Shown here piece by piece: positions 5,372 to 25,011 of a DNA stretch of 32,000 bases (positions are counted from its first letter, which is position 1; each line of letters begins with the position of its first letter). The stretch is from an archaeon (lineage in GTDB: Archaea > Iainarchaeota > Iainarchaeia > Iainarchaeales > CSSED10-239): NCBI GenBank assembly GCA_035400625.1, contig DAOMZT010000001.1:180001-212000 (forward strand). The letters run 5' to 3'. The position numbers were made by a program, and so were the translations under genes. A model generated the notes under the pieces. It saw nothing but the letters and a program-made list of their open reading frames with translations. It did no database searches and was not told the DNA's origin.

Positions 5372-5392
5372 TTATATGCCTGCCTAGTTAGG
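5372..5392 (-). promoter_or_regulatory. mcm promoter: TATA-like box preceded (minus sense) by CCTAACTAGGCAGG
   Basis: Minus sense reads cctaactaggcagg-catataa about 40 nt upstream of the ATG. The same upstream motif recurs at 22585-22601 and 23641-23654. Confidence 0.45.
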
Positions 5393-8874: not shown

Positions 8875-11181
8875 ATGAAGATTGGCAATTATACTGTTGG
8901 GGACTACATAGTAGATAATGAAGGTGGCAAGAAAAAGCTTATCTTTGATTGTAGACATTGTGTCTATAACACTTCTATTTCTGATGATCCTAGGTGTAGA
9001 TACCATGTCATGAAAACACTTGCAACAGTTGATGCTGATGAAGTTATTCTTGCAGAAGTCTATGAAAGAGTATATACTCAAAAGCAAACTTCCTTTCTTA
9101 AAGAAATGGTAGACCTGTTGCTTGATTTTGAGAACAGGGCTGTTTGGGTATCCTCTCATCTTAAAATAGAAGACATGGATTGTGATGAGTGTTATCCACA
9201 AAGGCATAATAATATTCTTAGGTTTGCTAGAGATCTTTTATCTTATGACCCTATAGCATCATATATCTCTCTTCTCAAAGAAGTAGAAAACACAAAAACT
9301 AGAGCAAATGAACAATCTGGAAGAGATTGTGAAAAATGCTTTAAAGCTAATCTTAAACATTTATTGTCTTTAAAAGAACAATATGATAAAACTGATTTTG
9401 TTAAGACATTAAAGCCGATACTTACAAAAATAAAGGACTATAATGATCTAACAGATGTTTATAAGACAGTATTTGAAGCACAAGTCAAGCCAGCTTTTAT
9501 TGGCTCTCAGCTTCTAAGAAGTGATGCAGAAAAATTTGAGTTGATAGATGAATATCAAGTGCTAACCACAAATGTTCAGATATTTAAACATCCAGAAAAG
9601 ATAGAGCTAATCTATAATATAAATCCACCAGAATATACTTTGTCACCAGACCATTATTTTGTTTTGTCAAAAACAAAAGACACTGTTGCTAATTATCAGC
9701 CAGGAAAAGTAACATTAACTTCTGGAACTGGCACAAGAAAATATTTCCAAAGAATATACCAAAGCACGATTGTTGATGTTGCTAGAAAATATGGAATTTC
9801 TTTAGCACCAGATGATGTTACTGCTCTTTCTGAAATTGTTACAAGATACACTATAGGCTATGGCATCTTGGAGATGGTATTATCTGATAGAAACATAACA
9901 GATGTCTATATTGATTCGCCAATCGGTGCCAGACCAATCTATATTGTGCATAGCAAATATGGTCAATGCCAAACAAACATACTTTATACAGATAAAGAAG
10001 CAGAATCTCTTGTTGGTAAAATGAGGGCAATGTCTGGAAGGCCTTTTGATGATGCTCACCCAATTTTAGATTATGATCTTCCAGATCTTAATACTAGAGT
10101 TGCTGCTATTGGCAGGCCACTAGCAACTGATGGCACTGCTTTTGCATTTAGATTGCATAAAGACACGCCATGGACCTTGCCACAACTGATTAATGTCAAG
10201 TCCCTAAATCCATTAGCTGCAGGAATGCTATCTTTTTTCATAGATAATAGCTCAACATTATTAGTTGCAGGTTCTCGTGGGTCTGGTAAAACATCTTTGA
10301 TGACTGCTTTAATGCAAGAGATTTTACAGAACAAAAGAATAATTGTTCAGGAAGACACTCTTGAATTACCAATAATGTACTTAAAAGACATTGGATTTAA
10401 TGCTCAAAGACTAAAAACAAAATCAGCAATTGGTTCTGATGAGGAGTCTGGCGAAGTCAAGCCAGAAGATGCATTAAGAACTGCTTTAAGACTTGGAGAC
10501 TCCGCTATCATTGTTGGAGAAGTTAGAAGTGTAGAAGCTAAGGTCTTATATGAAGCTATGAGAATTGGCGCTGCTGGTAATGTTGTTATGGGAACAATCC
10601 ATGCAGACTCTGCTTATGCTGTATGGGACAGAGTTGTTAATGACTTGGGGGTTCCAACAACTTCTTTTAAGGCTACAGATCTTGTCGTTGTAACTAAACC
10701 TATAAGATTTAAAGGTTCATTAAAGAGCCATAGAAGAGTAGTGCAAATAACAGAAGTCAAGAAACATTGGAATACCGATCCAGATGCTGAAGGTGGATTG
10801 ATTGATTTAATGACTTATGATGCAGGAAAAGATGCATTAATATTAAACGAAGATGCACTTAAAGATTCTGATCTTTTTACAAAGATTTCAACATTGTCTG
10901 GAATGTCAATTGAAGAGATATGGGATAATATCAAGCTTTTAGCTAAGGAAAAGGAATATCAGGTAGAGCTTGCTAGAGAATTAAAGTGTATGGAGTTGTT
11001 GGAGGCAGAATACACTATATCTATACACAATAAACTGCTTTTGATTAAGGAAGAGTGGATAGAAGAGTATGGCAAGATTGATTTTAATGCTATTCTTGTT
11101 GAGTGGAAGAAATGGCTAAAAGAGGATTTTGCCCCAACCATTGTAAAAAGAATAAATGAAAATAAGAAATTAGAAGAATAA
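8875..11181 (+). CDS. FlaI/VirB11/GspE-superfamily secretion or type IV filament ATPase with a long N-terminal extension
   Basis: 768 aa. Walker A GSRGSGKTS, Asp box RIIVQEDTLEL, Walker B IIVGEVRSVEA, His box GTIHADSA. About 450 aa precede the P-loop, including CRHC...C and CDEC Cys pairs. Confidence 0.85.
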   Translation: MKIGNYTVGDYIVDNEGGKKKLIFDCRHCVYNTSISDDPRCRYHVMKTLATVDADEVILAEVYERVYTQKQTSFLKEMVDLLLDFENRAVWVSSHLKIEDMDCDECYPQRHNNILRFARDLLSYDPIASYISLLKEVENTKTRANEQSGRDCEKCFKANLKHLLSLKEQYDKTDFVKTLKPILTKIKDYNDLTDVYKTVFEAQVKPAFIGSQLLRSDAEKFELIDEYQVLTTNVQIFKHPEKIELIYNINPPEYTLSPDHYFVLSKTKDTVANYQPGKVTLTSGTGTRKYFQRIYQSTIVDVARKYGISLAPDDVTALSEIVTRYTIGYGILEMVLSDRNITDVYIDSPIGARPIYIVHSKYGQCQTNILYTDKEAESLVGKMRAMSGRPFDDAHPILDYDLPDLNTRVAAIGRPLATDGTAFAFRLHKDTPWTLPQLINVKSLNPLAAGMLSFFIDNSSTLLVAGSRGSGKTSLMTALMQEILQNKRIIVQEDTLELPIMYLKDIGFNAQRLKTKSAIGSDEESGEVKPEDALRTALRLGDSAIIVGEVRSVEAKVLYEAMRIGAAGNVVMGTIHADSAYAVWDRVVNDLGVPTTSFKATDLVVVTKPIRFKGSLKSHRRVVQITEVKKHWNTDPDAEGGLIDLMTYDAGKDALILNEDALKDSDLFTKISTLSGMSIEEIWDNIKLLAKEKEYQVELARELKCMELLEAEYTISIHNKLLLIKEEWIEEYGKIDFNAILVEWKKWLKEDFAPTIVKRINENKKLEE

Positions 11182-11644: not shown

Positions 11645-14600
11645 TCAAAGTTTGTTCCTTTTTGGGTTTTTTCTCTTTTTTATAACAATCAGTATTATAG
11701 CAATTATTACTACTAATATTGAAAGATCTAAAAGCCAGAAAAGCCAAGTGTTTGATTTCTTTTTTTCTGAAGTTTCAGATTCTTGATTTTCTCCTGAAAC
11801 TGCAGTAATTACTGGAACACCTGTTGTGTCGGTTATTTTGTCTGTATTAGTATCATTGTTGGTTGTTGTGTTAGTGTCAGGAGAGTAAGTGATTGTTTTG
11901 TCTTTGTATGTTGTGTTGTTAGTATTATCTGCAGATGAACTTCCAGATGAGGAAGATTCATAATCGTCATCATCTTCTTCTGAAACCTCTTGTATTTTCA
12001 CACTTATATCTTGTCTTTTTGAACAACTTGTTTTATCTTTATCAGTAAATTTACCATCAAATTGTAATTTTATAGTTTTTGTGGTTGTTGACTCAAACAC
12101 ATCTGATACAATTTCTATTCTTAGGTATTCTGAATCTTTATTATTGATTTTTGTAGGCTCTTCTTTGATTGTAATGTCTAGGCCAGATGCTTGCGTTAAT
12201 GAAAGATTGGTTATATTAAAATTAAAACTTGAATCATTTGTTATTGCTATTGATTTTGTAACTGTGCTGTCTGAGTAGGTTGTTATTGATGTTGTTGTTA
12301 CCTTTAGATCTGAACAGCTTGCTTTTTCTTCTTCCTCTTCTTCCTCTTCCTCCTCTTCTCCGGTGCTACCACCACCTGAACCGCCACCGCCACCACCAGT
12401 GCCACCGCCTCCAGAAGTTGCAGGGGTGTATGCTGTAAAATCAGTAAAGTGCTTTGTCCAGATTACTAAGTCTCCATCTTTAGAAGTATAGCAATCTCCT
12501 GTATGATTTTTATCGTAATTTTCTGAATTTAAATCTTGTAAATAAGTATCAGGATCTGAAAGTTGGTTTTCATCACATTCATCAATTCCATATAAGTTGC
12601 CATCAAGTATATACCCTGCTCTTTTTCCTGCCATACCGCCTATTATTATTTTTACTGCTTTAGAAAAAAGTAATGTCTTGTTCTCATCAAGTCCAAGAGT
12701 GATTGTAATTTCAGATGTTCCTTTATCGCCTATATCATAATTATCTGTAACTGTTGGTAGTATTAGGTTACCATCCCAGCCATTAATGCCCATTATGTTT
12801 GTATCTGAATAGATTGTTACTGAGTGTTTTGTTGTGGTTGTTTGTCTTTCAAAGAAGAAATTACCGTCTTCTGGGACAATTACAGAATTATTGTCTGTAT
12901 CTAAAATTTCAGATAGATCAAAAATAACTTGTGAGTTGCTGTCTACAAATGATGGAATAACAACAGTGTAGCTAGAATCATCATGCTCAAAGCTAACATA
13001 GTTATTATCAACAATTCTTTGAAAGCTCCATTTGTTATTATCTAATACTAGATGGAAAGGAGTGTAAGGATTATTAGAATCATCAACTAATGAACAATTG
13101 GTATCGTCAATCATTATTATTGCGCCATTATTTGAATCAGTTGTATTAAAATCAATATAATATCCGTTTTCATCATTATGATAGATTGCTGAAAAAATAG
13201 CTCTGTTCACATCAATAGTTAGATAATAAAAATTTAAATCGTGCCCATCTACTAATGGTGTTATATTTAGGTTTGGTGGGTTTGTGTCTAGATTTAAATT
13301 TTCTGTAAAATATACCCTCACATGATTTTCATCATTATTGTTTGTATCAATATAGGAGAAAGGCAGTGCATTATCATCTATTGTTGTGTTGTTATCTAAA
13401 TAACTTGCATCAATTAGAGGAGATTTATTTCCAAGAATATCAACAAATGCATTTTCATCTATTTTAAAAGAGTCATTTACATCAGTAAATAATGCAAATG
13501 CAGGAGAAAAATAAATTGTTATTAAGTTATTATTTGCATCTACATCTAAAGAACTAACTACATCTTCTATTCCGTTAACAACAATTTTGTTTTTTGTGTT
13601 TTCATCAATGCAATCAAAATTAATATCTTCGTCATCAAAGCTTAAAATCATTTTATATCTGTTTGGGATTGTTATATTTTTTAATATTGGAGCCGTAGTA
13701 TCCCAAACAAAATTAAAATTAGAATCTTTTGAATTACCTGCACGGTCAGTGACTGTTAAAGTAATAGTGTAGTTGCCATCAGATGATGCATTGATGTCTG
13801 TAGATTCTAAATTAGGAGATAGAATGTTTACCTCATCAAGTGTGCTCCAATAATAAGTAGCTATACCAGAACCGTCATCACTTGCATTGGAATCGATATG
13901 TATTGTTTGATTGGTATAAACATCATTTAAGGAAATTGTTGGAGCTGTAGTATCCCAAATAAAATTAAAATCGGCTGATTGAGTGTTACCTGCACGATCT
14001 GTAACTGTTAAAGTAATAGTGTAGTTGCCATCAGATGATGCATTAATGTCTGTAGATTCTAAATTAGGAGATAGAATGTTTACCTCATCAAGTGTGCTCC
14101 AATAATAAGTAGCTATACCAGAACCGTCATCACTTGCATTGGAATCGATATGTATTGTTTGATTGGTATAAACAGTATTTAAGGAAATTGTTGGAGCATT
14201 AGTATCCCAAATAAAATTAAAATCTTCATATCCGGTATTACCAGCACGGTCAGTAACCGTTAAAGTGATATGATAGTTGCCATCGGCAGAAGCATTTATA
14301 TCTGTGACATTAGAATCATCATCACTAAAAGTAATATTTTCCTGAGGAGAAGCAGACCACTTATAACTTGCAATACCAGAAAGTTCATCTGTTGCAGTGG
14401 CAGTAACAGTTACAGTCTGGTTTGTGTCAATGTCTTCTATGGCAGAAATAACAGGAGCAGTAGTGTCAATTATCAATTCATATGTGGTTCCGTCATAATA
14501 AGTAGCGTCCTCAATAGTCATCATGGCATTTACATCATAATTGCCATCTGCTAATTCTAAAGCAATAAGACTCCAAGTGTTTGTATCATAATCTACAACT

Positions 14601-14815
14601 ACATTTGAATCTAAAGAAGTATAGCTTATTGAATTTATTATGATTATAAAATTTGCATCTCCTGATATGCCATTTAAATCAAATCTACCATTTGTATCTG
14701 GTGTACGGTCGTTTGTTACTAAAGGATTAACAGTTATGCTTGGTTCTGCAAAAACAAAACCTAAAATAAATATTAAAGACAAAGACAATAAAATCTTAGA
14801 AAGTGGTTTAGACAT
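11645..14815 (-). CDS. large C-terminally anchored surface protein with tandem Ig-like repeats (adhesin-like)
   Basis: 1056 aa. It has a signal peptide (LSLSLIFILGFVFA), three DTxAP...TVTDRAGN units, Asn/Asp/Thr-rich beta-rich regions, a Gly then Glu linker, a Ser/Thr/Asn stalk, then a TM helix with a basic tail (WLFWLLDLSILVVIIAIILIVIKKRKNPKRNKL). GAGGT lies upstream of the ATG. Confidence 0.8.
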   Translation of the reverse strand: MSKPLSKILLSLSLIFILGFVFAEPSITVNPLVTNDRTPDTNGRFDLNGISGDANFIIIINSISYTSLDSNVVVDYDTNTWSLIALELADGNYDVNAMMTIEDATYYDGTTYELIIDTTAPVISAIEDIDTNQTVTVTATATDELSGIASYKWSASPQENITFSDDDSNVTDINASADGNYHITLTVTDRAGNTGYEDFNFIWDTNAPTISLNTVYTNQTIHIDSNASDDGSGIATYYWSTLDEVNILSPNLESTDINASSDGNYTITLTVTDRAGNTQSADFNFIWDTTAPTISLNDVYTNQTIHIDSNASDDGSGIATYYWSTLDEVNILSPNLESTDINASSDGNYTITLTVTDRAGNSKDSNFNFVWDTTAPILKNITIPNRYKMILSFDDEDINFDCIDENTKNKIVVNGIEDVVSSLDVDANNNLITIYFSPAFALFTDVNDSFKIDENAFVDILGNKSPLIDASYLDNNTTIDDNALPFSYIDTNNNDENHVRVYFTENLNLDTNPPNLNITPLVDGHDLNFYYLTIDVNRAIFSAIYHNDENGYYIDFNTTDSNNGAIIMIDDTNCSLVDDSNNPYTPFHLVLDNNKWSFQRIVDNNYVSFEHDDSSYTVVIPSFVDSNSQVIFDLSEILDTDNNSVIVPEDGNFFFERQTTTTKHSVTIYSDTNIMGINGWDGNLILPTVTDNYDIGDKGTSEITITLGLDENKTLLFSKAVKIIIGGMAGKRAGYILDGNLYGIDECDENQLSDPDTYLQDLNSENYDKNHTGDCYTSKDGDLVIWTKHFTDFTAYTPATSGGGGTGGGGGGSGGGSTGEEEEEEEEEEEKASCSDLKVTTTSITTYSDSTVTKSIAITNDSSFNFNITNLSLTQASGLDITIKEEPTKINNKDSEYLRIEIVSDVFESTTTKTIKLQFDGKFTDKDKTSCSKRQDISVKIQEVSEEDDDDYESSSSGSSSADNTNNTTYKDKTITYSPDTNTTTNNDTNTDKITDTTGVPVITAVSGENQESETSEKKKSNTWLFWLLDLSILVVIIAIILIVIKKRKNPKRNKL
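12323..12415 (-). repeat. low-complexity linker coding SGGGGTGGGGGGSGGGSTG followed by 12 consecutive Glu
   Basis: Read from the translation (aa 801-831). On the plus strand it appears as ttc/ctc runs followed by a cca/ccg-rich run. Confidence 0.9.
13703..14467 (-). repeat. three tandem Ig-like domain repeats; the last two (13955-14206, 13703-13954) are near-identical 252-nt units
   Basis: aa 117-203, 204-287 and 288-371. Units 2 and 3 are identical through the central roughly 70 aa and differ only near the unit ends. Confidence 0.9.
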
Positions 14816-15264: not shown

Positions 15265-17484
15265 TTACTCGATTGGCCAGCTTGTGATTACGTTTATTAA
15301 TTCGCTTGCTGCTGTGCCTGTATCTGCTTTTGTCCAACCAGCAACATAGATGTTACTGTTTGCGTGTTTACCTACGATAAAGTCGTCTTCTTCAACTAAG
15401 GAATCTTCAGTTATACCTTCAGCAAACTTGTTTACAAGGTGTCCACCTACTACGATTTTAGTACCTGATATTTCCATGACATCTTTCTTTAGAAGATCGC
15501 TTGGATTTACTTGAGTTTCAATGTATGGGTGATATGGGTTTGTTTGTTCTGTGTCGCCAGGTGTTGTAATTACTCCACCAATGAATAACTCGTATTTCTT
15601 TGGATCTTCAGGTAATGATACATTGATATATCCGTTAGCTATTTTTACTACTCCACCTGTTGCTGTGTATCCTTCTTGGATATCATCGTCGTCTTCATCA
15701 TTCAAGTTGAATTTCCAATTACCATTAGCATATTTTACTTTTGGACCAGTAAAGTTATCCATTACGTCTTCATCTGCTAATTTGAAATTCTTTGTATCCA
15801 TAGAGAAGTTAATATCTTTAGGTGCGGTATCTACATCTTTTATTGTAAAGATTGTTGCATTTCTGTCGCTACCTGTGTTGAAACCATCGAAAAAATCTGT
15901 TTCGTCTCCACCAGTTATTGAAAAAGTACCTTTTTTGCCTATATTTCCATCAGTTCCTTTGAATGCAATTGCCATTTCATTAGAATTTGCTAAAATTCTA
16001 AATTGGTGTGAGGTACCTGAAGTTAAATCACTTACTATGGTGACATTTGTGTCTGCTGCAACATCGTGTGCACCAGCAATGAATTCGTCTTCATCACTTG
16101 TTTCGCTTACTGTGTAGTTGCCATCAACATCTCTTATCAAATAATAGTCTTTGTTGTCAACTGCGAACTTCATTTTTGATTCTGATCCTGTTGTAAATGC
16201 TTTCTTCAAAAACAATGGAACTTCATATGTGTACTTATAATCTGACCACTTTATTGTTTTATTAGATGTTATTTCAAAGTCGTACATTGTTTCATCTGTT
16301 AGTCCAACAAACTTTACAGAACCTAAATCATTTGGGAAGTCTGCTGAATCGCCTATTTTTAATGCTGGGAAGTCTGCATTTTCTCCAACGTCACTCCAAC
16401 CATCTGTATCTGTAACTCTTATTTCTTTAAGGTAGTGGTTTGCAGTGAATGTTTCATCCCAATTAGCAGTCCATTCTCTTTCGTCCTCGCCTGTGAAATC
16501 TTCAATCTCTTCTCCGTTGTTTAATTCTAACACAGCATTACCTTGGCTAATTTCAACATAACCTTGTTGATTATCTGCATAGTTGACTTCTGTAACAGTT
16601 ATTTCAGATATCTTGCCATTGAATGTGGTTGATTTACCTTCTCTTAAGCTTTGTGATCCAACTTGTGAAGATCCTTGCTTTAACAATAGAAGAACTCTAT
16701 CTTGTGTGATTGTTGATACTTCTACGGTGTAATCATCTATTACGAAAACGCCACCCTCTCTATATATTAACTTATTTTCTTGTTCAACTAAAGTTATTTT
16801 ATCTTCAGTAATAGATCTTATCTTATATGTTTTACCCATGAATGGAATTTCTATATCGTGTTGTCCGCCAGCATTCAATGTATAATCTGTAGCTGATGTA
16901 TCTGTTACTTTAATACCTGTACTGCCTAAATTTAGGGTGTATTTTGCAGTACCTGCTGGTATTTTTGCGATTACTGCTTGGACATCTTCATCTGCCTCAA
17001 AGTAAACGTCTGAAACATTTACATCCATAGTTTCTTTTACATTTTTTAGTGTTTTCTTTGTGTCATCGTGATCGTAATATTCTATGTCGCCATCGAATAA
17101 TTTGTTGTATTTTGTATATTTTACACTGAAATCATCATCAAGGTCAAAACCCATATCATCATCATCGAACAAAGTGCCATCATCTGTTGTTGTGCCAGGA
17201 GTGCTAGGGGTTGGTACCCATGCGTCATATTGTGGGTTTCTCTTCTTTGCACTTGTTGCGATTGCGTTTGCTATGTTCTGTGCCCATTGATCGTCGTCTC
17301 CGTTTACTCCGGTAACAATACTTACTTTTGGTTGCATTGTTGAGGTTGTGTAAACATCGCCTTTTACAACTGGACCAAATGTGTCGCCACTGTTGTTACC
17401 AGCTATTGCTACGCCCAGAACACCTACACCTAATGCAAGTGCTGCTGCGCCAGCAACTACTTTTTTTACATTTATATTCTTCAT
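15265..17484 (-). CDS. probable S-layer / major cell-envelope protein
   Basis: 739 aa. Signal peptide KKVVAGAAALALGVGVLGVAIAG, a very acidic Asp/Thr/Gly-rich body without Cys, and no C-terminal TM. The C-terminal block IVVGGHLVNKFA...YVAGWTKADTGTAASEL resembles archaeal (Methanococcales-type) S-layer C-terminal domains as I recall them. It has the strongest SD in the window (GGAGGAG) and its own terminator. Confidence 0.6.
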   Translation of the reverse strand: MKNINVKKVVAGAAALALGVGVLGVAIAGNNSGDTFGPVVKGDVYTTSTMQPKVSIVTGVNGDDDQWAQNIANAIATSAKKRNPQYDAWVPTPSTPGTTTDDGTLFDDDDMGFDLDDDFSVKYTKYNKLFDGDIEYYDHDDTKKTLKNVKETMDVNVSDVYFEADEDVQAVIAKIPAGTAKYTLNLGSTGIKVTDTSATDYTLNAGGQHDIEIPFMGKTYKIRSITEDKITLVEQENKLIYREGGVFVIDDYTVEVSTITQDRVLLLLKQGSSQVGSQSLREGKSTTFNGKISEITVTEVNYADNQQGYVEISQGNAVLELNNGEEIEDFTGEDEREWTANWDETFTANHYLKEIRVTDTDGWSDVGENADFPALKIGDSADFPNDLGSVKFVGLTDETMYDFEITSNKTIKWSDYKYTYEVPLFLKKAFTTGSESKMKFAVDNKDYYLIRDVDGNYTVSETSDEDEFIAGAHDVAADTNVTIVSDLTSGTSHQFRILANSNEMAIAFKGTDGNIGKKGTFSITGGDETDFFDGFNTGSDRNATIFTIKDVDTAPKDINFSMDTKNFKLADEDVMDNFTGPKVKYANGNWKFNLNDEDDDDIQEGYTATGGVVKIANGYINVSLPEDPKKYELFIGGVITTPGDTEQTNPYHPYIETQVNPSDLLKKDVMEISGTKIVVGGHLVNKFAEGITEDSLVEEDDFIVGKHANSNIYVAGWTKADTGTAASELINVITSWPIE

Positions 17485-17942: not shown

Positions 17943-18611
17943 CTATCTCAACCTAGATAGTGCTTCATTTTCTTTCTTTAGAGTATGTATCATTTGAGCA
18001 TAGCCGTGTGTCATATCAGTAATTATCATAATTGTATTTTGTAAATCAGAAATTGTAACATTTAACTTGTCAGGCTTAAGAACTTCAACTGAGGTCGCTC
18101 CGTAAAAGTAAATTAGCTTAAATAAAGAGTTTATCTCGTTACAAGACAAAGTAGCAGAGATGTATGTAGAAAAAAGATCATCATGCACCACTATTTCTGC
18201 AAGAGTGCTATCATATATTAAATACTCTTTATCATTTTTTAAGGACTCTAGAATTTGCTCCATTCCTTTCCTTAAACTTAGTTTATCATTAGATTTAGAC
18301 TCTATGATTACTGCCACCTTTATTGTGTTTTTATCATTTTCAGACAATCTCTTTCTCTCTGTTAGCTTATCTTTAACCTCTGAAGACAAAGAATACTTGA
18401 CTGGAAAGCCCTCTTTTGTTATTAGCTTTAAAAACAGCATGTTTTTTAGAGCCTGAACAATCTGCTCATACCTGGCATTAGGGATAAGCCTTATTAGATC
18501 ATCTTCGGTCTTGGAAGAATCAGCTAAATGTTTGCCTATAAGATTTTGTAGCTCTTGAATTTCTAGTTTTTCTTTTAGTTGTAAAGCCTCGTAGTCTAAT
18601 TGTTTTTCCAT
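17943..18611 (-). CDS. hypothetical protein (possible N-terminal winged-helix, unknown C-terminal domain)
   Basis: 222 aa with an ATG start. The segment YEQIVQALKNMLFLKLITKEGFPVKYSLS looks wHTH-like. I recognise no catalytic motif. Confidence 0.45.
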   Translation of the reverse strand: MEKQLDYEALQLKEKLEIQELQNLIGKHLADSSKTEDDLIRLIPNARYEQIVQALKNMLFLKLITKEGFPVKYSLSSEVKDKLTERKRLSENDKNTIKVAVIIESKSNDKLSLRKGMEQILESLKNDKEYLIYDSTLAEIVVHDDLFSTYISATLSCNEINSLFKLIYFYGATSVEVLKPDKLNVTISDLQNTIMIITDMTHGYAQMIHTLKKENEALSRLR

Positions 18612-18692
18612 AGATAATCATAATTTTGCTTGAAATATATATAACTTATAATTAAAAAAGTATTTAAAACCTTTATAATCAATTAAATAGAT

Positions 18693-18926
18693 ATGGATTA
18701 TCTTTTATTGATTATAGGAGTACTACTAATAGTAGTTACAATATTACTTATTGGGCTAGCAAAAAACCTAATATTAAATAGCATTATTGGAGCAATGGGT
18801 TTTTTGATATGTTATTTTGTATTTAATATAAAGTTACCAATAGTAGTCACATTAATAGCATCAGCAATCTTTGGGCCAGCAGGTCTGGGGGTCATGCTTT
18901 TGTTATGGTTGTTTAAGATTATTTAA
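18693..18926 (+). CDS. small three-TM membrane protein, BofA-like
   Basis: 77 aa. NSIIGAMGFL...FN...IFGPAGLGVMLLL resembles the BofA-family pattern. TATA-like cctttataatc lies about 20 nt upstream of the ATG. The gene overlaps the convergent radical SAM stop by 4 nt. Confidence 0.45.
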   Translation: MDYLLLIIGVLLIVVTILLIGLAKNLILNSIIGAMGFLICYFVFNIKLPIVVTLIASAIFGPAGLGVMLLLWLFKII

Positions 18927-19786
18927 ATATTTCCTAGATATACGTTTTTTAGCCCTTTGGCTTTTGCTAGCTTTTCTGCAAGCTTTAATGTTTCTAGCTT
19001 TGTTGGGATTATATTTTTTAAACGATAATATGGAAAGGCCCTTGAGAAATGCAAAGGAATATCTTTAGAAACAGAATATACAAAATCAATTGTTTCTTGG
19101 ATATCTTCTGGCTTTGTGTTATAGCCTTCTATCATTAGGTTGGTGATCTCTATATGTATTTTATTTTTATGTAATTCTTTTATATTCTCTTTTATGTGCT
19201 TAAGCTTTATTCCAGGAACCAGTTCATCATATAATTTTTGAGTGCCTTTTAGATCAATGTTTATTGCATCTAGATATGGCATTATATCTTTTAAAACCTC
19301 TTTAGACATATAGCCATTACTTACCCAGATATTTTTTATATCTTGAGAGCTTGCTTTTTTCATGATGTCTAGAGCATAATCAACAAAGATTGTTGGCTCT
19401 GTATAGGTGTAAGAGATAGAAGGAGTTTTTCTTTCAATTGCTATATTTATGATCTCATCTGGAGAATAATAATCCATTGCCTCTAGATTGATGTTTTTAC
19501 AATTAGAGATGTCATAGTTTTGGCAAAATGCACAATCAAAATTACAGCCTGCTGTTCCTAATGAAAGAGTCTTGGTGTTTGGAAGAAAATGATATATTGG
19601 CTTTTTTTCTATTGGATCTAGATTAATAGAAACAGGCTTGCCATAAACCAAAGAAACAAGTTTTTGATTTTCGTTTTTTCTAACTTTACAAAAGCCAGTG
19701 TTGTTTTTTGAGATTATACAATATCTATTACAAGCAAGGCATTTGATAGAATTAGGATCAACAACTTGAAAATATTTTGAAAACAT
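18923..19786 (-). CDS. amrS: AmmeMemoRadiSam-system-type radical SAM enzyme
   Basis: 287 aa. N-terminal Cys cluster CLACNRYC...FCKVR, radical SAM CX3CX2C (CNFDCAFCQN), and size and layout typical of this PflA-like family. Confidence 0.75.
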   Translation of the reverse strand: MFSKYFQVVDPNSIKCLACNRYCIISKNNTGFCKVRKNENQKLVSLVYGKPVSINLDPIEKKPIYHFLPNTKTLSLGTAGCNFDCAFCQNYDISNCKNINLEAMDYYSPDEIINIAIERKTPSISYTYTEPTIFVDYALDIMKKASSQDIKNIWVSNGYMSKEVLKDIMPYLDAINIDLKGTQKLYDELVPGIKLKHIKENIKELHKNKIHIEITNLMIEGYNTKPEDIQETIDFVYSVSKDIPLHFSRAFPYYRLKNIIPTKLETLKLAEKLAKAKGLKNVYLGNI

Positions 19787-19825
19787 AAATTAAAAAAAAG
19801 AAAAATAAAAAGGGAGAAATTTCAT

Positions 19826-21292
19826 TTATTCCTTTTCCTTTTTATCTCTAGCAAAGAACAGGAAATAACCTAATGCACCTATTACTAACAATGCACCGAT
19901 TAACAAAGCAATGCCTGTTGATGCATTTTCAGATAGGCCTAAGAAACCTGTTGTGCCTGATGTCTTTTCAGGATTTGCTACTGCAACATTACCAGTTGTT
20001 GGAGCTGTCTCTGTTGGTGTTGCTGGTGATGGAGTTGTTGGGGTTGTTACTACTGGTTGAGGTGCAGGTGTATTAACTACTGTTGGAGTTGTAACTACTG
20101 GTTGAGGTGTTGGTGTTACTGGTGTTGGTGTTGGGTTAACTGTTGGTGTGGTTGTAGTTCCTGTTACTCTTCTGCCGCCTCCGCTTCTCCTTATTATTGT
20201 TATTGCATCAACTTTATCTTCTTTTTTGTTTCCAAGTTCATCTGTTGCAGAATACCAAACTGTGTGTGTTCCTCTTGGCAATCTATCTAATTGTACACTC
20301 CAATTTCCATTTGGATCTATAGAGTTTACAACGTAATCTTTGCCATTTACTGTTATTTTAAACTCAGTTATATCGGTTAAATCCTCTACATTACCAGTTA
20401 ACATTGGCTCTCTGGTTGGTGTAGAAATTGGGTCTACAATAACAATTGGTTCAGTTCTATCAATTGTTAAATTAATGTCTTTTTCTGTAATATTTCCTGC
20501 TGCGTCGAAAGCTTTGATTTTTAGTTTATATTCTTTACTATCTTCTTTAAAATCTGTATTGTCTAAATCCTCTACTTTAAAATAACATGTGAATTGTTTT
20601 TCCTTAGATAATCCAGGATTTACTTCTGCAGTTGGTAGTTCTAGTTTACAAGAAATTGGTTTTTGGATTTTGTTGTTAAGTAATATATCTGCCTCTACCT
20701 TTGCATTCTGGATAACGGTCTCGACAATTTCATTCTCATTTAAAAATAAAACTCCAGTTATATTGAAATCTTTGTTGTGTTGTCTTGGTTTTGTGTCTAT
20801 TTTCATTTCTAGAGATATTGTATCTTTCATTATTTTAGCATACTTTTCTAATTCCTGTGCGTTAAAAAGTGTAATTTTAACACTAACCTTTATCTCGCCA
20901 TCTTTTAAATCATTTAATTTAGCTGTGTTTTCCTTATCATAGACAATTATCTTTTCTTCTTTTACTGCAAATTTATTAAATAACACATCGGTTGTACCAT
21001 CGCTAAAAGTAACTTCTAATGATTTAATACATTTTTCGCTGATTTTATTATTTAATAAGATGTTGCCAGAATAATTGTCTATATTTACAGAATTAATAGA
21101 TACAAAATTAATTTCTTTTATTTCAACAGCTGTAGGGCATTTCACATCTCTTGCACCTATAGAGTCAGTAGATGGGGCTTGTGCAGAAACGACTTGTTTA
21201 GGCTCTGTTGAAATTAGTTGCCCAGCATATATTGGAGTCAATAATGCGAAAACAAAGAACACCCCTAATAAAATTTTAATTTTTGAGTTCAT
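19826..21292 (-). CDS. secreted surface protein, paralogue A (Ig-like domains, Pro/Thr stalk, C-terminal TM anchor)
   Basis: 488 aa. Signal peptide MNSKIKILLGVFFVFALLTPIYAG, FDAAGN and TDELGN Ig-like signatures, a PT-rich stalk, and LLIGALLVIGALGYFLFFARDKKEKE. AGGAG lies upstream of the ATG. Confidence 0.75.
   Translation of the reverse strand: MNSKIKILLGVFFVFALLTPIYAGQLISTEPKQVVSAQAPSTDSIGARDVKCPTAVEIKEINFVSINSVNIDNYSGNILLNNKISEKCIKSLEVTFSDGTTDVLFNKFAVKEEKIIVYDKENTAKLNDLKDGEIKVSVKITLFNAQELEKYAKIMKDTISLEMKIDTKPRQHNKDFNITGVLFLNENEIVETVIQNAKVEADILLNNKIQKPISCKLELPTAEVNPGLSKEKQFTCYFKVEDLDNTDFKEDSKEYKLKIKAFDAAGNITEKDINLTIDRTEPIVIVDPISTPTREPMLTGNVEDLTDITEFKITVNGKDYVVNSIDPNGNWSVQLDRLPRGTHTVWYSATDELGNKKEDKVDAITIIRRSGGGRRVTGTTTTPTVNPTPTPVTPTPQPVVTTPTVVNTPAPQPVVTTPTTPSPATPTETAPTTGNVAVANPEKTSGTTGFLGLSENASTGIALLIGALLVIGALGYFLFFARDKKEKE
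20043..20110 (-). repeat. 45-nt periodic repeat encoding PQPVVTTPT in the Pro/Thr stalk
   Basis: gttgtWactactggttgaggtg occurs at 20043 and again at 20088. Confidence 0.7.
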
Positions 21293-21450
21293 AAATTCTC
21301 TTTTCTCCTTTTTATTTTTCTTTTTTAATTTAAATTTTGTTTATTTAAATTAAATTTTTTTAAATTGTTTTTTTGTTTTGTTTATTTATTTTTTTGTTTT
21401 GGTTTTAAAATTACTGTTTGATTGGTTTTTTGTTAATATTATTGTTCGGT

Positions 21451-21508
21451 CTTATGTTAATCAAACACATAAGATCTCTTAATTGAAACATAAGATCTCT
21501 TAATTGAA
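21451..21508. repeat. array of ACATAAGATC sites: one inverted copy plus a 21-nt unit (acataagatctcttaattgaa) repeated in tandem
   Basis: Tandem units at 21467-21487 and 21488-21508. The inverted partner g(g)tcttatgt is at about 21449-21457. Located 175-215 nt upstream of the paralogue A ATG. Confidence 0.7.
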
Positions 21509-21575
21509 CTGTTTTGTAAAATCAGATATTAAGCTTGTAAGGTCAATACTTAATATATACTAGTGAGGGAAACCC

Positions 21576-21592
21576 TTTATAAACCTGTCGTG
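21576..21592 (-). promoter_or_regulatory. TATA box (tttataaa) with a degenerate copy of the shared upstream motif (cctgtcgtg), paralogue A
   Basis: Read directly. Unusually far (about 284 nt) from the ATG at 21292. Confidence 0.35.
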
Positions 21593-21735
21593 TTTGGTAA
21601 TTTAACCTGTTCATTTATAAAAGGTAATGGCCATCTAAAGAGCCTATTTTTGTGTTTTAGCAGATAAATAATGGAAAAAAAGAGTTGGGTAGAAGAAAAT
21701 AAAGAAAGAAATAAATGTGCTATTGCTAATCTAAA

Positions 21736-22488
21736 TTATTTCTGTACCCTATAGATTTTCAGATCGAAATCTTTTGCCCTTATGTTTCCTATATCATCTT
21801 GTGCTATAAATTTTATCTTGTATTTGTCACTATCTTCAAAAAGAGAAATATCAAAGTCACAAGTAAATTCTGCAAACCTAGAAACCATGGTTGGTGATTC
21901 GCTTATGTAACAAGTAACCCAATTGTCAGATAATTTAACACCATCTAGTGATGTCTGCACTATTAAAGTTGAAGAACGGTCTATTCTTCCACGTATTTGA
22001 AAATCAGCTTTCTTTTTTAAAGAAGTATATCTTTCATAGATCTTCAAATAAGGAGCAACGGTGTATTTGATATTTCTTTTTGTAACTCCACATCTTGCAT
22101 TATCAAAAGAAACAACAACAGAGATGTTGCCATCTTGTAAACTTGACAAATCTATGTTTTTAATAGTTAGGCTATTGATGTTTGGCCTTATGTTGTCTTT
22201 TGTAATAGAGACAGATTGAGAAGGATAATCTTCATTTATAAAAGATATATTTAATTCTTGGATAGTTACTTTTTTTTTGAACTTTAAAATGATTGAATAA
22301 TCATTTTGATTAACATTATTAATTGGAACTAATTTGAACTTGACGATGTCTGCGACTTTACTACCTGAACTGCAAGGTCCAGAAGACGCCATAGATATTG
22401 CATTTTTAGATAATGTGCCTGCATATATTGGAGCCAATAATGCAAATACAAAGAAAATACCTAATATTATTTTAATTTTTGAATTCAT
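21736..22488 (-). CDS. secreted protein, paralogue B (no C-terminal anchor)
   Basis: 250 aa. Signal peptide MNSKIKIILGIFFVFALLAPIYAG. The C-terminal module (TVAPYLKIYE...FQIRGRI...STLIVQT...CDFDISLFEDSDKYKIKFIAQDDIGN) aligns with paralogue C and, more loosely, with paralogue A. Confidence 0.75.
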   Translation of the reverse strand: MNSKIKIILGIFFVFALLAPIYAGTLSKNAISMASSGPCSSGSKVADIVKFKLVPINNVNQNDYSIILKFKKKVTIQELNISFINEDYPSQSVSITKDNIRPNINSLTIKNIDLSSLQDGNISVVVSFDNARCGVTKRNIKYTVAPYLKIYERYTSLKKKADFQIRGRIDRSSTLIVQTSLDGVKLSDNWVTCYISESPTMVSRFAEFTCDFDISLFEDSDKYKIKFIAQDDIGNIRAKDFDLKIYRVQK

Positions 22489-22576
22489 AAATTTTTTTCC
22501 TTTTTTTATTTTGTTTTAAATACATCAAATAATATAAATTATAACAAATATTTTGATATACTTGTAAGAGAAATAC

Positions 22577-22601
22577 TTTATAAACCTGCCGAGTATGAAG
22601 G
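22577..22601 (-). promoter_or_regulatory. shared promoter module, paralogue B (minus sense ctcggcagg-tttataaag-tatttctc)
   Basis: TATA about 89 nt upstream of the ATG at 22488. Near-identical to the module at 23625-23654. Confidence 0.5.
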
Positions 22602-22730
22602 TTTAGTCTTTCGTTTATAGAAGTTTATAAAGACAAAAAAAGTTTTTAAAAAAATAGAGAAAAAACCACAAGAAAATAAGATTGTTTCTTATTTCTTGTA
22701 GATTCTAACTAACTTTGTCTGCGCACAGAT

Positions 22731-23510
22731 CTATCTGTTGATAGATAGATAGATGTCTTCAGTTTTAATATTTCTTGTAGTGTTATCTTCTGCGACAAAT
22801 TTAATCATATATCTATCGCTATCTTCAACAAGAGAAATATTAAAGTAACATATGAAATCTAAATAATTAGATACCATGTTTGGTGAATCATTTGGGTTGC
22901 TTGTATGGCATGAGAACCAATCAACATCAAAATCAACACCATTTAATAATGTCTGCACAGTTAAAGTTGCTGAGTCAGCAATTCTTCCACGTATGTAAAA
23001 ATCTGTGTTCTTTCTTATTGTCTTTTTTTCAAAAATTTCCAATCTAGGAGCGACTGTGTTTTTTGTAATTGTTGTTCGAACACCGCATCTATCATTAAAT
23101 CCGCATCTTAAATTATTATATGAAACTGTTACAGTGTTTGTCCCATCTTGTAAATTGGACAAATCTAAATTTTCCATAGTTATGCTAGATTGGCTACCAG
23201 GTAATGAATTAATTTCATCTTCTTTCATATCGAACTGCTCGTATTCACCTGTTCCATCTGCAAAAAAAGCTCTTAAATGAGTGATTGGAGTAGTGTTTCC
23301 TTCTATGAAATGAACAGTAAATGAATAATTATCTTGATTTACATTACTTATTGGCTGTAGTTCTATATAATCAATTAGATTTGTATTATTATATGTCTCA
23401 GGAAATACATTTGGATTTGTTAAGTGTGTTAATGGTCTTCCAGCATATATTGGAGTCAATAATGCGAAAACAAAGAAAACACCAAATAATATTTTCATTT
23501 TAGAATTCAT
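22731..23510 (-). CDS. secreted protein, paralogue C (no C-terminal anchor)
   Basis: The ORF-track start at 23582 is TTG. The ATG at 23510 gives MNSKMKILFGVFFVFALLTPIYAG and has AGGAG 8 nt upstream, matching its paralogues. 259 aa. Confidence 0.75.
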   Translation of the reverse strand: MNSKMKILFGVFFVFALLTPIYAGRPLTHLTNPNVFPETYNNTNLIDYIELQPISNVNQDNYSFTVHFIEGNTTPITHLRAFFADGTGEYEQFDMKEDEINSLPGSQSSITMENLDLSNLQDGTNTVTVSYNNLRCGFNDRCGVRTTITKNTVAPRLEIFEKKTIRKNTDFYIRGRIADSATLTVQTLLNGVDFDVDWFSCHTSNPNDSPNMVSNYLDFICYFNISLVEDSDRYMIKFVAEDNTTRNIKTEDIYLSINR

Positions 23511-23632
23511 AATCTTTTTCTCCTTTTTTAGTTTTTTTGTTTTTGTGTTAAATCTTGTTATATTAATATATAGTATATCCAATAAACAAAATGTAACAAC
23601 ATAACAGAATAATACATTTGTTAGAGAAATAC

Positions 23633-23661
23633 TTTATAAACCTGCCGAGTTAGGAAGCCTA
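23633..23661 (-). promoter_or_regulatory. shared promoter module, paralogue C (minus sense cctaactcggcagg-tttataaag-tatttctc)
   Basis: TATA about 123 nt upstream of the ATG at 23510. gttagg-aag-cctaac (plus sense) also forms a 6-bp hairpin. Confidence 0.5.
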
Positions 23662-23733
23662 ACCAGCCCTTATATAAAAATAACATAGACCCAACAAATA
23701 TATTTTAATAGTTTTTTAACATAATAATTAAAT

Positions 23734-25011
23734 ATGAAATATAATATTGATCTGCACATACATTCGCCTTATGCTTCGGGAGTATCTAAAAATATGAGTA
23801 TACCAATACTTGCAAAAGAAGCAAAGCTAAAAGGCCTAAATGTCTTGGGAACAGGAGATATCTTACACCCTGATTGGTTTAAGCATGTTAAAGAAAATCT
23901 AATATTAGAAAAAGATTGTTATATTTTTAAAAATGACAAAAACTCAGATAACAAAACATATTTTATATTGACAACAGAAGTTGAAACAACAGGAAGAGTG
24001 CATCATCTTTTGTTTTTCAGAGAACTTTCGCAAGTCTTAGAATTTAAAAAAGAAATTGAAAGATTTTCAAGCGACATGAGTGTTTATGGAGGGGGTAGGC
24101 CAAGACTTTCTATTACTCCAAGCACATTATTGGATATTTGCATTAAACATGATGTGTTGATTGGGCCAGCACATGCATTTACCCCATATTTTGGAATATA
24201 CTCAGGAAGTGATTACCTAAAAGAAGCATATGGAGAAAACTACAAAGAAGTAAGATTTATTGAACTAGGGCTGTCTGCTGACAGTAATAGCGCAAATGTT
24301 ATTCCTGAACTTAAAGATCTAAAATTTTTCTCATTTTCAGATGCACATTCTCCTAATAGCTATAGAATAGGAAGAGAATATGTTTGTGCAGAACTAGAAA
24401 AGCCAAACTTTGAATCTATTAAAAATCTATTATATAATCTAGGAAATAATAAGATATTGTTTAATGTAGGGTATAACCCAAAAGAAGGAAAATATAATAG
24501 GACAGCTTGTAGAGATTGTAAGAAAATACATACTCTTAATGACGCAATAAAAAACAACTGGAGATGCCTAAAGTGCAGAGGCATATTAAAGAAAGGAGTA
24601 GAAGATAGAATCATTGAGATAGCTAAACTTCAAGGAAATACAGAACTTAAACAAATAACAGAAAGGCCAGATTACAAATATTTAATCCCGCTTGCTCAGA
24701 TTATTCAAATGAAGATTGGAAAAGGAGAACTTTATAATAAAAGAGTACTGGAAAAATATGAAAAGCTAATCACAAGACATACAGAAATAGAAATTGTCTT
24801 GGAACTGCCAGAAGAAAAGCTAAAAGAACTAGATGAAGATATAGCAAAACTTGTGATGGCTTTTAGAAAAGGATTGGTGGTGTTTAGACCAGGCGGTGGT
24901 GGACACTACGGAGTGCCATTCATTTGCTTTACAGAAGAAGAAAGAAAAGCTAAAGAAGCAGAAATATTAAAAGAACAAAAAATACCATATATTCAAAAAA
25001 CACTATTTTGA
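23734..25011 (+). CDS. endoQ: endonuclease Q-like PHP-domain nuclease (TIGR00375-type)
   Basis: 425 aa. The N-terminus IDLHIHSPYASGVSKNMSIPILAKEAKLKGLNVLGTGDILHPDW closely resembles the EndoQ N-terminus as I recall it. An internal C4 zinc finger (CRDCKK...CLKCRG) and the length match Pyrococcus EndoQ. Confidence 0.7.
   Translation: MKYNIDLHIHSPYASGVSKNMSIPILAKEAKLKGLNVLGTGDILHPDWFKHVKENLILEKDCYIFKNDKNSDNKTYFILTTEVETTGRVHHLLFFRELSQVLEFKKEIERFSSDMSVYGGGRPRLSITPSTLLDICIKHDVLIGPAHAFTPYFGIYSGSDYLKEAYGENYKEVRFIELGLSADSNSANVIPELKDLKFFSFSDAHSPNSYRIGREYVCAELEKPNFESIKNLLYNLGNNKILFNVGYNPKEGKYNRTACRDCKKIHTLNDAIKNNWRCLKCRGILKKGVEDRIIEIAKLQGNTELKQITERPDYKYLIPLAQIIQMKIGKGELYNKRVLEKYEKLITRHTEIEIVLELPEEKLKELDEDIAKLVMAFRKGLVVFRPGGGGHYGVPFICFTEEERKAKEAEILKEQKIPYIQKTLF

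Follow-up and report, generated by a model that had tools for sequence, protein, structure and literature searches.

Three tandem genes, here designated A, B and C, lie on the minus strand of a 32,000-nt stretch of archaeal DNA (contig DAOMZT010000001.1; hereafter, the window) and encode homologous exported proteins that combine closely similar signal peptides with strongly diverged mature parts. Between related strains, the segment of gene A encoding the outer domains of its protein is replaced as a block with mapped breakpoints, the number of genes at the locus varies from one to three, and the conservation of the 5′ coding ends does not reflect recent gene conversion among the paralogues. 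We consider it probable that the genes constitute a lineage-specific, cassette-variable surface-protein locus, composed of an anchored protein A with an exchangeable two-domain ectodomain (D1–D2) and the unanchored duplicates B and C. All three open reading frames (ORFs) were found on the minus strand with the coordinates and N-termini called in a first-pass annotation made from the window alone.

Allelic replacement of the gene A ectodomain

The locus was compared in species 1, comprising the window strain and the sister strains L007, L010 and L011, and in species 2, a second species that carries it at the same syntenic position between a divergently transcribed EndoQ-family gene (23734–25011, plus strand) and an AmmeMemoRadiSam radical-SAM gene (18923–19786, minus strand). 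Gene A (19826–21292) encodes a 488-aa anchored surface protein composed of a signal peptide, the domains D1 and D2, a Big_13 domain (D3), a Pro/Thr stalk and a transmembrane anchor. In L007 and L010, whose flanks are ~96–97% identical to those of the window, the promoter, leader and signal peptide of gene A are identical to the window sequence. At the predicted signal-peptide cleavage site (~21220), the nucleotide identity to L007 drops from 1.0 to 0.18 in the next 60-nt bin, and the body of gene A cannot be aligned from 21220 to ~20455 in either strain. The unalignable tract coincides with the variable D1–D2 ectodomain (aa 25–280; 20453–21220), and the 5′ recombination breakpoint falls at the 3′ edge of the signal-peptide segment (MNSKIKILLGVFFVFALLTPIYAG, 21221–21292), which encodes a peptide 100% identical in all four strains. 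The encoded bodies are only 23–26% identical at a saturated synonymous divergence (dS) of 1.2–1.3, compared with a dS of 0.02–0.10 in the flanking genes. On the other side, the identity recovers gradually across the Big_13 Ig-like domain (20204–20422), which retains 61–63% protein identity and a nucleotide identity of 0.58–0.87 between allele classes, and the stalk and anchor are again 93–94% identical; in the stalk (19985–20167), the nucleotide identity between strains with different ectodomains reaches 90–100%. Compared with the allele of the same class in L011, the body of the window strain differs by 32 non-synonymous and 7 synonymous changes, a ratio of non-synonymous to synonymous divergence (dN/dS) of 1.14 versus 0.07–0.17 in the flanks (p 8e-8). 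The samples ERZ795044 and ERZ795051, adjacent in accession number, carry the two allele classes, and the organism is also present in JGI 3300010357. The constant 5′ end joined to a variable body, as proposed in the first-pass annotation, was thus recovered for gene A between strains, with the body replaced and the breakpoint at the signal-peptide boundary; it does not hold for the three paralogues as sequences varying within one genome.

In one and the same strain pair, the body dS is 10–30 times that of the neighboring signal peptide, stalk and flanking genes. An excess of this kind cannot come about through protein-level selection, so the D1–D2 ectodomain of gene A is best read as replaced between strains by recombination. 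Conserved synteny, low-dS flanks, a saturated-dS center and sharp breakpoints, which together define cassette-type allelic replacement, were found in both species. In species 2, the EndoQ/radical-SAM interval holds a single A-type gene, represented at the same syntenic position by four different alleles of 391–730 aa with a near-identical stalk and anchor, and in one allele pair the similarity ends 81 nt after the ATG. A species-2 allele, P0012, contains a D1-type domain like those of proteins B and C.

Alternatively, the genes could be ordinary tandem paralogues of a fast-evolving exported protein with a constrained signal peptide, the differences in gene A having arisen by point mutations and indels under relaxed or positive selection, with no cassette exchange. 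The conservation of the signal peptide can be explained at the protein level, as detailed below, and weak homology remains between the allele bodies at the end of D2. Within one allele class, moreover, the A body evolves at a dN/dS of ~1.1. Nevertheless, we regard such an origin as unlikely, since neither the excess of synonymous divergence nor the 5′ boundary, a step inside one 60-nt bin, would be expected from it, and since the occurrence of B/C-like D1-type domains in allele P0012, and of five such repeats in an allele of a third lineage (L017), points to domain-level shuffling.

A diversity-generating retroelement (DGR) or another targeted mutator was also considered as the source of ectodomain variability. 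DPANN archaea are known as DGR hosts, and the variable part of A is predicted to be a surface-exposed, ligand-binding region. However, no reverse transcriptase was detected among the window ORFs or the nine proteins scanned against Pfam, no pair of template and variable repeats lies in or near genes A, B and C, and the alleles differ over ~750 nt, including indels and domain content, rather than at scattered adenine-templated sites. For the window, this explanation is effectively refuted.

Architecture, copy number and distribution of the family

Gene B (21736–22488) encodes a 250-aa and gene C (22731–23510) a 259-aa exported protein, each composed of a signal peptide and two Ig-like domains with no anchor. 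BLASTP revealed homology among all three proteins, with 42% identity between B and C (E 4e-60), 33% between A and B (E 3e-22) and 29% between A and C (E 1e-20). The D1–D2 ectodomain of A is homologous to the entire mature part of B and C, which consist of D1–D2 only and both end exactly at the D2/D3 linker. As the first-pass annotation had it, an extra Ig-like domain, a stalk and an anchor occur in A alone. The former is a Big_13 domain (Pfam PF19077, aa 291–363; 39.7 bits against a gathering threshold of 27, E 7.2e-10); the stalk (aa 376–436) comprises 23 Thr, 16 Pro and 10 Val among its 61 residues and contains imperfect direct repeats; and the C-terminal hydrophobic segment (GIALLIGALLVIGALGYFLFFA, 19850–19918), followed by RDKKEKE, reads as a putative transmembrane anchor. 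D1 and D2 match no Pfam family, and B and C yielded no Pfam match at E ≤ 0.1. Given this architecture, gene A is described here as encoding a stalked, membrane-anchored Ig-like protein that would be displayed at the cell surface.

About 8 residues before the C-terminal transmembrane helix of A lies the motif NP..TSGxTGFLGL (19919–19970, aa 441–458). Its TSGxTGFLGL part is invariant in 10 of the 10 aligned A-type alleles from two species and resembles a sorting signal (cf. PGF-CTERM); a search for an archaeosortase/PGF-CTERM signal in A, P0007 and P0012 returned no NCBIfam/TIGRFAM sorting-domain match at E ≤ 0.1.

AlphaFold2 (AF2) modeling of the A ectodomain from a 12-sequence alignment produced three all-beta sandwich domains (predicted local distance difference test, pLDDT, 78.4). 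The top Foldseek matches in the PDB were MpIBP (5irb), SiiE (2yn3) and the titin I9–I11 tandem (5jde), with E-values from 7e-11 to 2e-10; the global TM-scores were low (0.3–0.4) because of the inter-domain geometry. The AF2 model of B, obtained from a 3-sequence alignment, was likewise all-beta with two domains, and its low confidence (pLDDT 54) made it too poor for a fold search, which was run on the A model only. At the fold level, the proteins can be placed by these models with the Big_13/BIg adhesins. When 1.84 billion representative proteins were searched with a profile of the shared module, full-length relatives were confined to this lineage; the remaining matches were giant repeat proteins in which a stretch of ~50 residues, corresponding to the C-terminal strands of an Ig-like repeat, was matched many times. 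A 44-aa profile run against a collection of 5.8 billion proteins returned one partial protein and missed A, B and C themselves, so this search says nothing about distribution.

The copy-number variation looked for in view of the first-pass annotation was observed: three genes are present in the window strain, L007 and L010, two in L011 and one in species 2, gene C being absent from L011 and from the species-2 loci. A chimeric junction, likewise anticipated, was found upstream of gene B in L011, where the EndoQ–B spacer is a chimera of the EndoQ–C and C–B spacers of the window, joined just 5′ of a conserved promoter block described below. This arrangement fits the loss of gene C by unequal recombination between the duplicated upstream regions. 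Gene C is 98–99% identical in L007 and L010 (dN/dS 0.08–0.21), and gene B is 94% identical, with a dN/dS of 0.22–0.29 that is significantly above that of the flanking genes. The ratios show that B and C, although truncated and lacking an anchor, evolve under purifying selection. Counts of distinct sequences per 90% cluster were considered as a measure of microdiversity and not used, since they are confounded by flanking-gene clusters that include species 2.

The third lineage is represented by the metagenome-assembled genome (MAG) ‘archaeon isolate AMR_MDS_2622’. Its contig L017 (1211–3502) encodes a 763-aa allele in which five D1-type Ig-like domains follow one another in tandem, the signal peptide is a different one, and an Asn/Gly/Asp-rich linker replaces the Pro/Thr stalk; the promoter and leader sequence are retained. 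The locus is apparently the same, as its upstream spacer can be aligned with those on the EndoQ side in the window and in L008 (species 2). Another short contig of this MAG, L016, holds a second C-terminal fragment of the family with a different sequence, and a C-terminal fragment begins near the end of one of the two contigs. Several alleles are known only from contigs of 2–7 kb; local strain heterogeneity would explain both these short-contig alleles and the family members split between L016 and L017, and cassette-variable loci of this type fragment metagenome assemblies.

The window encodes MCM, an RPA-like protein, aIF2-beta, EF-1alpha, ribosomal protein S10, RtcB and a FlaI-type ATPase, has a G+C content of ~30%, and is archaeal. 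The host organism is a small-genome, DPANN-type archaeon that recurs across many metagenomes: the exact protein B was found on 21 contigs from JGI, ENA, NCBI and Logan assemblies (the longest, Ga0116249_10000002, of 813 kb), and matching MAG proteins carry the NCBI labels ‘archaeon’ or ‘Candidatus Diapherotrites archaeon’. The GTDB representative genomes contain zero matches to a degenerate DNA pattern designed on the signal peptide, and the species is accordingly not represented among them. Neither of two scans of IMG/VR viral contigs turned up relatives of the A/B/C family.

Conserved 5′ ends: signal peptide and upstream block

The signal peptide reads MNSKIK / ILLGVFFVFALLTPI / YA|G, with neither a lipobox Cys nor a class III (K/R-G) motif in the sequence as read directly, and is predicted to be a 24-residue Sec-type peptide cleaved at the marked site. 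The excess of 5′ coding identity proposed in the first-pass annotation was confirmed. The first 72 coding nucleotides of the three genes (C, MNSKMKILFGVFFVFALLTPIYAG, 23439–23510; B, MNSKIKIILGIFFVFALLAPIYAG, 22417–22488; A, as above) are identical at 61 of 72 positions between A and B, 64 between A and C and 62 between B and C (85–89%), compared with a nucleotide identity of 49%, 49% and 62%, respectively, over codon alignments of the rest of the coding sequence, and the first 24-codon window is the most conserved one in every pair. The cause suggested there, homogenization of the 5′ ends by gene conversion, did not stand up. Among the paralogues, the non-synonymous divergence is 0.04–0.09 in the signal peptide versus 0.47–0.74 in the body, and the proportion of synonymous differences (pS) is 0.33–0.47 versus 0.51–0.71; identical residues use the same codon in 65–72% of cases in the signal peptide and in 50–65% in the body, a difference that is not significant (Fisher p 0.12–0.39). 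Paralogue-specific synonymous codons occur in all strains examined, namely AAC at codon 2 of A, TCT at codon 3 of C and GTA TTT at codons 14–15 of B. As synonymous sites differ and these codons are kept across strains, recent gene conversion is not supported.

Between the window and species 2, the A signal peptide has a saturated dS of 2.8 at 70% protein identity, so selection acts on the peptide and not on the DNA; together with the stalk and anchor, it belongs to the best-conserved parts of the protein between species. The high nucleotide identity of the paralogous signal peptides is accordingly a side effect of strong peptide-level selection in an AT-biased genome. A recombination boundary can be marked by a strongly conserved signal peptide with no gene conversion among paralogues. 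A trace of conversion may be contained in codons 7–9 of gene B, which vary by strain and equal the A codons in L010 and the C codons in L007 and L011; with few sites involved, this is only suggestive.

The signal peptide is specific to the family rather than generic, a possibility that the first-pass annotation had itself raised as an objection. Judged on one 293-kb sister-strain contig and the compared loci, the degenerate DNA pattern for FF[VIM]FALLxPIYAG identified only the three clustered genes in that contig, with nothing further in the metagenome collection, and a looser peptide pattern recovered only family members across all locus sequences compared. Two other large exported proteins of the window carry unrelated signal peptides.

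These data also bear on a third alternative, in which the locus would undergo antigenic or phase variation within populations, as Mycoplasma vlp/vsa or Neisseria pilE/pilS do, through frequent conversion via homogenized 5′ ends or through switching of expression, the latter having been raised in the first-pass annotation as well. The tandem paralogues do share a 5′ module, the variants at codons 7–9 of B could represent a micro-conversion tract, the A-runs beside the B ribosome-binding site differ in length by strain, and gene C was apparently lost from one strain through recombination of upstream regions. Weighed against this, four independent assemblies are 100% identical to the window over 19700–23800 (4.1 kb) and a fifth is 99.97% identical, so there is no switching at the level of the assembly consensus; the synonymous divergence of the signal peptides is substantial and not significantly below that of the bodies, and the paralogue-specific codons persist in all strains. 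Genes B and C are complete genes of the expressed type, each with its own upstream block, ribosome-binding site and signal peptide, and evolve under purifying selection, rather than being silent cassettes; no A allele body closely resembles B or C; and the window showed neither an invertible segment nor a recombinase, and neither a lipobox nor an in-frame array of repeats. Variation of this kind is, in our view, quite improbable, and the cassette-variable locus remains the preferred reading.

Upstream of genes B and C, the 28-mer ACTCGGCAGGTTTATAAAGTATTTCTCT is repeated exactly on the minus strand (22567–22594 for B, 23623–23650 for C; 0 matches expected by chance), which makes the shared sequence longer than originally described. 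It is composed of the AACTNGGCAGG element, the palindromic TATA-like TTTATAAA and GTATTTCTCT, and is invariant in all strains with adjacent bases varying; the upstream DNA around the two blocks is only ~65–70% identical. The degenerate third copy that had been noted upstream of gene A is a variant block (ACACGACAGGTTTATAAAGGGTTTCCCT, 21566–21593) that agrees with the B/C form at 23 of 28 positions and is also present in species-2 loci and MAG AMR_MDS_2622. Downstream of it lies a conserved leader segment (21506–21565), nearly invariant in L012, L013 and L017. Over the 92 nt from 21506 to 21597, comprising this leader segment, the A block and 4 nt beyond, the ungapped identity to L008 of species 2 (9856–9947) is 88%, compared with ~69% in the coding sequence, and in the third lineage the A block and leader are kept despite a different ribosome-binding site and signal peptide.

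As the host is an archaeon, the term promoter denotes here a TATA-type element and not a bacterial promoter. The block is interpreted, on its sequence, conservation and position and on a like arrangement upstream of the MCM gene (see below), as an archaeal TATA-type promoter directed toward the genes, which would yield predicted leaders of ~65 nt (B), ~100 nt (C) and ~260 nt (A). No tRNA gene (ARAGORN) and no Rfam family at gathering thresholds was detected in the window, so the block is not a known RNA. The joint promoter/Shine–Dalgarno module of the first-pass annotation was retained in part: the block is shared, and it lies away from the Shine–Dalgarno sequences, its beginning being separated from the start codon by 106 nt in B, 140 nt in C and 301 nt in A, while the similarity next to the start codons amounts to an A-rich GGAG/AGGA tract that is only 55–60% identical ungapped. 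The Shine–Dalgarno region and start codon of A (AAGGAGAAAAGAGAATTTATG, 21290–21310) include GAAAAATAAAAAGGAGAAAA, which is conserved in species-2 orthologues; the corresponding region of C (23508–23525) contains GGAG, and that of B (22486–22503) a weaker AGGA with flanking A-runs of strain-dependent length. At 22489–22510, these runs read A7-GG-A7, A6-GG-A5 and A6-GGG-A4 in the window strain, L007 and L011, respectively. For comparison, EF-1alpha is preceded by TTTATAAAG at −131 and a GGAGG ribosome-binding site. A hairpin followed by T-runs after gene C (22648–22699), read from the sequence, is probably a terminator separating the C and B transcription units.

A conserved 5′ leader hairpin was considered as an mRNA-stabilizing structure and rejected, as the hairpins that can be drawn for A, B and C had folding energies no better than those of shuffled sequences (z −0.6 for A, −1.2 for B and +1.0 for C; −1.7 and −0.7 for two species-2 A leaders). 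The long region upstream of gene A contains an exact 21-nt tandem duplication (21467–21508, two copies of ACATAAGATCTCTTAATTGAA on the plus strand) in the window strain, which is a single copy in L007, L010 and L011. The A Shine–Dalgarno region (21291–21326, AAAAAAGAAAAATAAAAAGGAGAAA) forms a 26–36-nt inverted repeat with a T-rich tract just past the A stop codon (19794–19829), and the RNA duplex predicted for these arms reaches −27.5 kcal/mol versus −12.2 ± 2.8 kcal/mol for shuffled sequences. Three species-2 loci retain both arms, and the L015 allele has lost the 5′ one; the repeat could reflect pairing of mRNA 5′ and 3′ ends or a coincidence of an A-rich leader and an oligo-T terminator. 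Finally, the AACTNGGCAGG element has 4 matches in the window versus 0.36 expected, one of them upstream of the MCM gene (3206–5335), where AACTAGGCAGGCATATAA (5372–5389, minus strand) contains it directly 5′ of a TATA-like box in the same orientation. This element may be a cis-element or regulator site common to MCM and the surface genes.

Proposed mechanism, related systems and neighboring genes

We hypothesize that gene A is the original gene of the locus and that its stalk holds the outer domains D1 and D2 away from the cell, as in an adhesin or receptor. Genes B and C would have arisen by tandem duplication in this lineage of a unit extending from the promoter through D2; because this unit stops at the D2/D3 boundary, the products would be exported but unanchored two-domain paralogues. 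Each gene would have a TATA-box promoter of its own, from which a leader of ~65–260 nt is transcribed, and would be translated from its GGAG/AGGA ribosome-binding site. Around the ectodomain, the only homologous tracts would be the promoter, leader and signal peptide on its 5′ side and the Big_13 domain, stalk and anchor on its 3′ side, and homologous recombination with DNA of related strains or species could use them to swap the D1–D2 cassette of A, while unequal recombination between homologous tracts would remove or add paralogue copies. The role of A as an adhesin or virus receptor is suggested by its architecture and evolutionary pattern, and diversifying selection on such an exposed protein is the likely driver of its variation.

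Several points weigh against this scheme. Very fast divergence could mimic replacement, although the step from 100% to 18% identity within 60 nt and the saturated dS argue for recombination. No donor was identified for any A allele, and the allele bodies share only the last 40–75 residues of D2. The signal peptide is a different one in two alleles, P0012 (L015) and the 763-aa L017 protein, and is consequently not an obligatory boundary. As to expression, where transcription starts, which way the palindromic TATA box points and what the leader comprises are deduced from sequence features; AT-rich, TATA-like sequences also occur nearer the start codons, and the hexamer just upstream of the TATA box is unlike the textbook purine/A-rich TFB-recognition element (BRE). 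A ~190-nt insertion, absent from the other species, accounts for the long distance of 283 nt between the A block and the ATG, and gene A may use another promoter.

A broader version of the proposal would regard the conserved 5′ and 3′ modules as portable homology arms with which DPANN strains, and even species, trade ectodomain cassettes, given that D1-type domains recur in a species-2 allele and, five-fold, in the third lineage. The locus would then be the main determinant of host attachment or virus adsorption, with B and C descending from earlier cassettes and acting as secreted decoys or soluble co-receptors. We offer this version tentatively and hold it to be rather doubtful as a whole.

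By analogy, the functionally closest systems would appear to be the emm-like clusters found in group A streptococci and, in Clostridioides difficile, the cassette types of slpA. In Streptococcus pyogenes, mrp, emm and enn are tandem genes for M and M-like surface proteins in the Mga regulon, each preceded by a similar promoter element of its own. M proteins form coiled coils and have a conserved signal peptide, a hypervariable distal N-terminus, a conserved Pro-rich wall-spanning region and an LPXTG anchor attached by sortase; their alleles arise by recombination as well as by point mutation, and the copy number is strain-dependent. The A/B/C locus shares with this arrangement the tandem paralogues with similar promoters, the conserved signal peptide, Pro-rich part and anchor, the variable distal part and the copy-number variation. 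In contrast to M proteins, A, B and C are Ig-like beta-sandwiches with no sequence or fold relationship to them, the anchor of A is a plain transmembrane helix and B and C are anchorless, and the host is an archaeon with TATA-type promoters in which no Mga-equivalent regulator was identified. The S-layer cassette types (SLCT) of C. difficile slpA likewise combine a variable exposed part with a conserved cell-proximal part. SlpA is a phage receptor, which would explain the selection. However, SlpA is the S-layer itself, cleaved into low- and high-molecular-weight (LMW/HMW) parts with cell-wall-binding domains, whereas A is a stalked, membrane-anchored Ig-like protein, and a separate S-layer-like protein (15265–17484) is encoded in the window.

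The first-pass annotation had compared the genes with the variable surface families of small-genome symbionts. The Mycoplasma vlp, vsa and vsp families are tandem lipoprotein paralogues in a small genome, with a conserved 5′ region and signal peptide and divergent mature parts, and the likeness holds in these respects. It fails in others, as the signal peptide is not followed by a Cys, D1 and D2 are free of repeat arrays, neither a promoter homopolymer switch nor an invertase switch is demonstrated, and the variation lies between strains and not within assembled populations. Membership in the Vlp/Vsa type was ruled out by the missing lipobox, in-frame repeats and switch element in the window. 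With the adhesins SiiE and MpIBP, protein A shares the fold of its three-domain ectodomain (Foldseek E 7e-11 to 1e-10) and a hidden Markov model (HMM) match to Big_13, and giant Ig-like repeat proteins give short HMM matches at the level of a single repeat. SiiE and MpIBP, however, are giant, type-1-secreted, Ca-stabilized bacterial proteins, whereas A, B and C are archaeal proteins of 250–490 aa with predicted Sec export. Replacement-type flexible genomic islands of Haloquadratum and marine bacteria carry unrelated variants of surface structures at a fixed site in co-occurring strains. The A locus resembles them in its fixed position between conserved housekeeping genes and in its mutually unrelated surface variants, and differs in that the replaced unit is an intragenic cassette of ~0.8–1.1 kb between signal peptide and stalk, not a multi-gene island.

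Bacteria provide well-known examples of a variable ectodomain enclosed by conserved export and anchor modules, and the general significance of the locus is therefore moderate. Within DPANN archaea, host recognition and virus evasion are poorly understood, and very few candidate specificity determinants are known. Gene A provides a compact candidate for host or virus specificity, with exposed domains that are wholly different between strains ~97% identical elsewhere. The locus is easily found because it lies between the EndoQ and AmmeMemoRadiSam radical-SAM genes, and gene A could serve to mark strains and could be targeted in experiments on attachment or adsorption.

Further surface-protein genes lie on the same strand of the window. 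The gene at 15265–17484 encodes an exported 739-aa protein with no Pfam or NCBIfam match, which may be an S-layer protein. Its N- and C-termini are conserved and its middle is clearly replaced in the sister strain L007 (801 aa), which makes it a second surface gene with mosaic inter-strain variation; the syntenic orthologues measure 778 aa in L008, 762 aa in L010 and 758 aa in L011. Also near the locus, the gene at 11645–14815 encodes a further Ig-like surface protein of 1056 aa, composed of near-identical tandem PKD/Big_13 repeats, a Gly/Glu-rich linker and a C-terminal transmembrane anchor, and only ~65% identical to its L008 counterpart.

After the radical-SAM gene, the related loci carry a small gene (55–59 aa) followed by a GNAT acetyltransferase gene (174–176 aa) in a toxin–antitoxin-like arrangement (L007, 6538–7068; L010, 10365–11062; L011, 5060–5757; L012, 7134–7827; L013, 5096–5789). 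The window strain lacks this pair, the equivalent site being located at ~18611–18926, and the window-type contigs L003 and L004 both end at this site.

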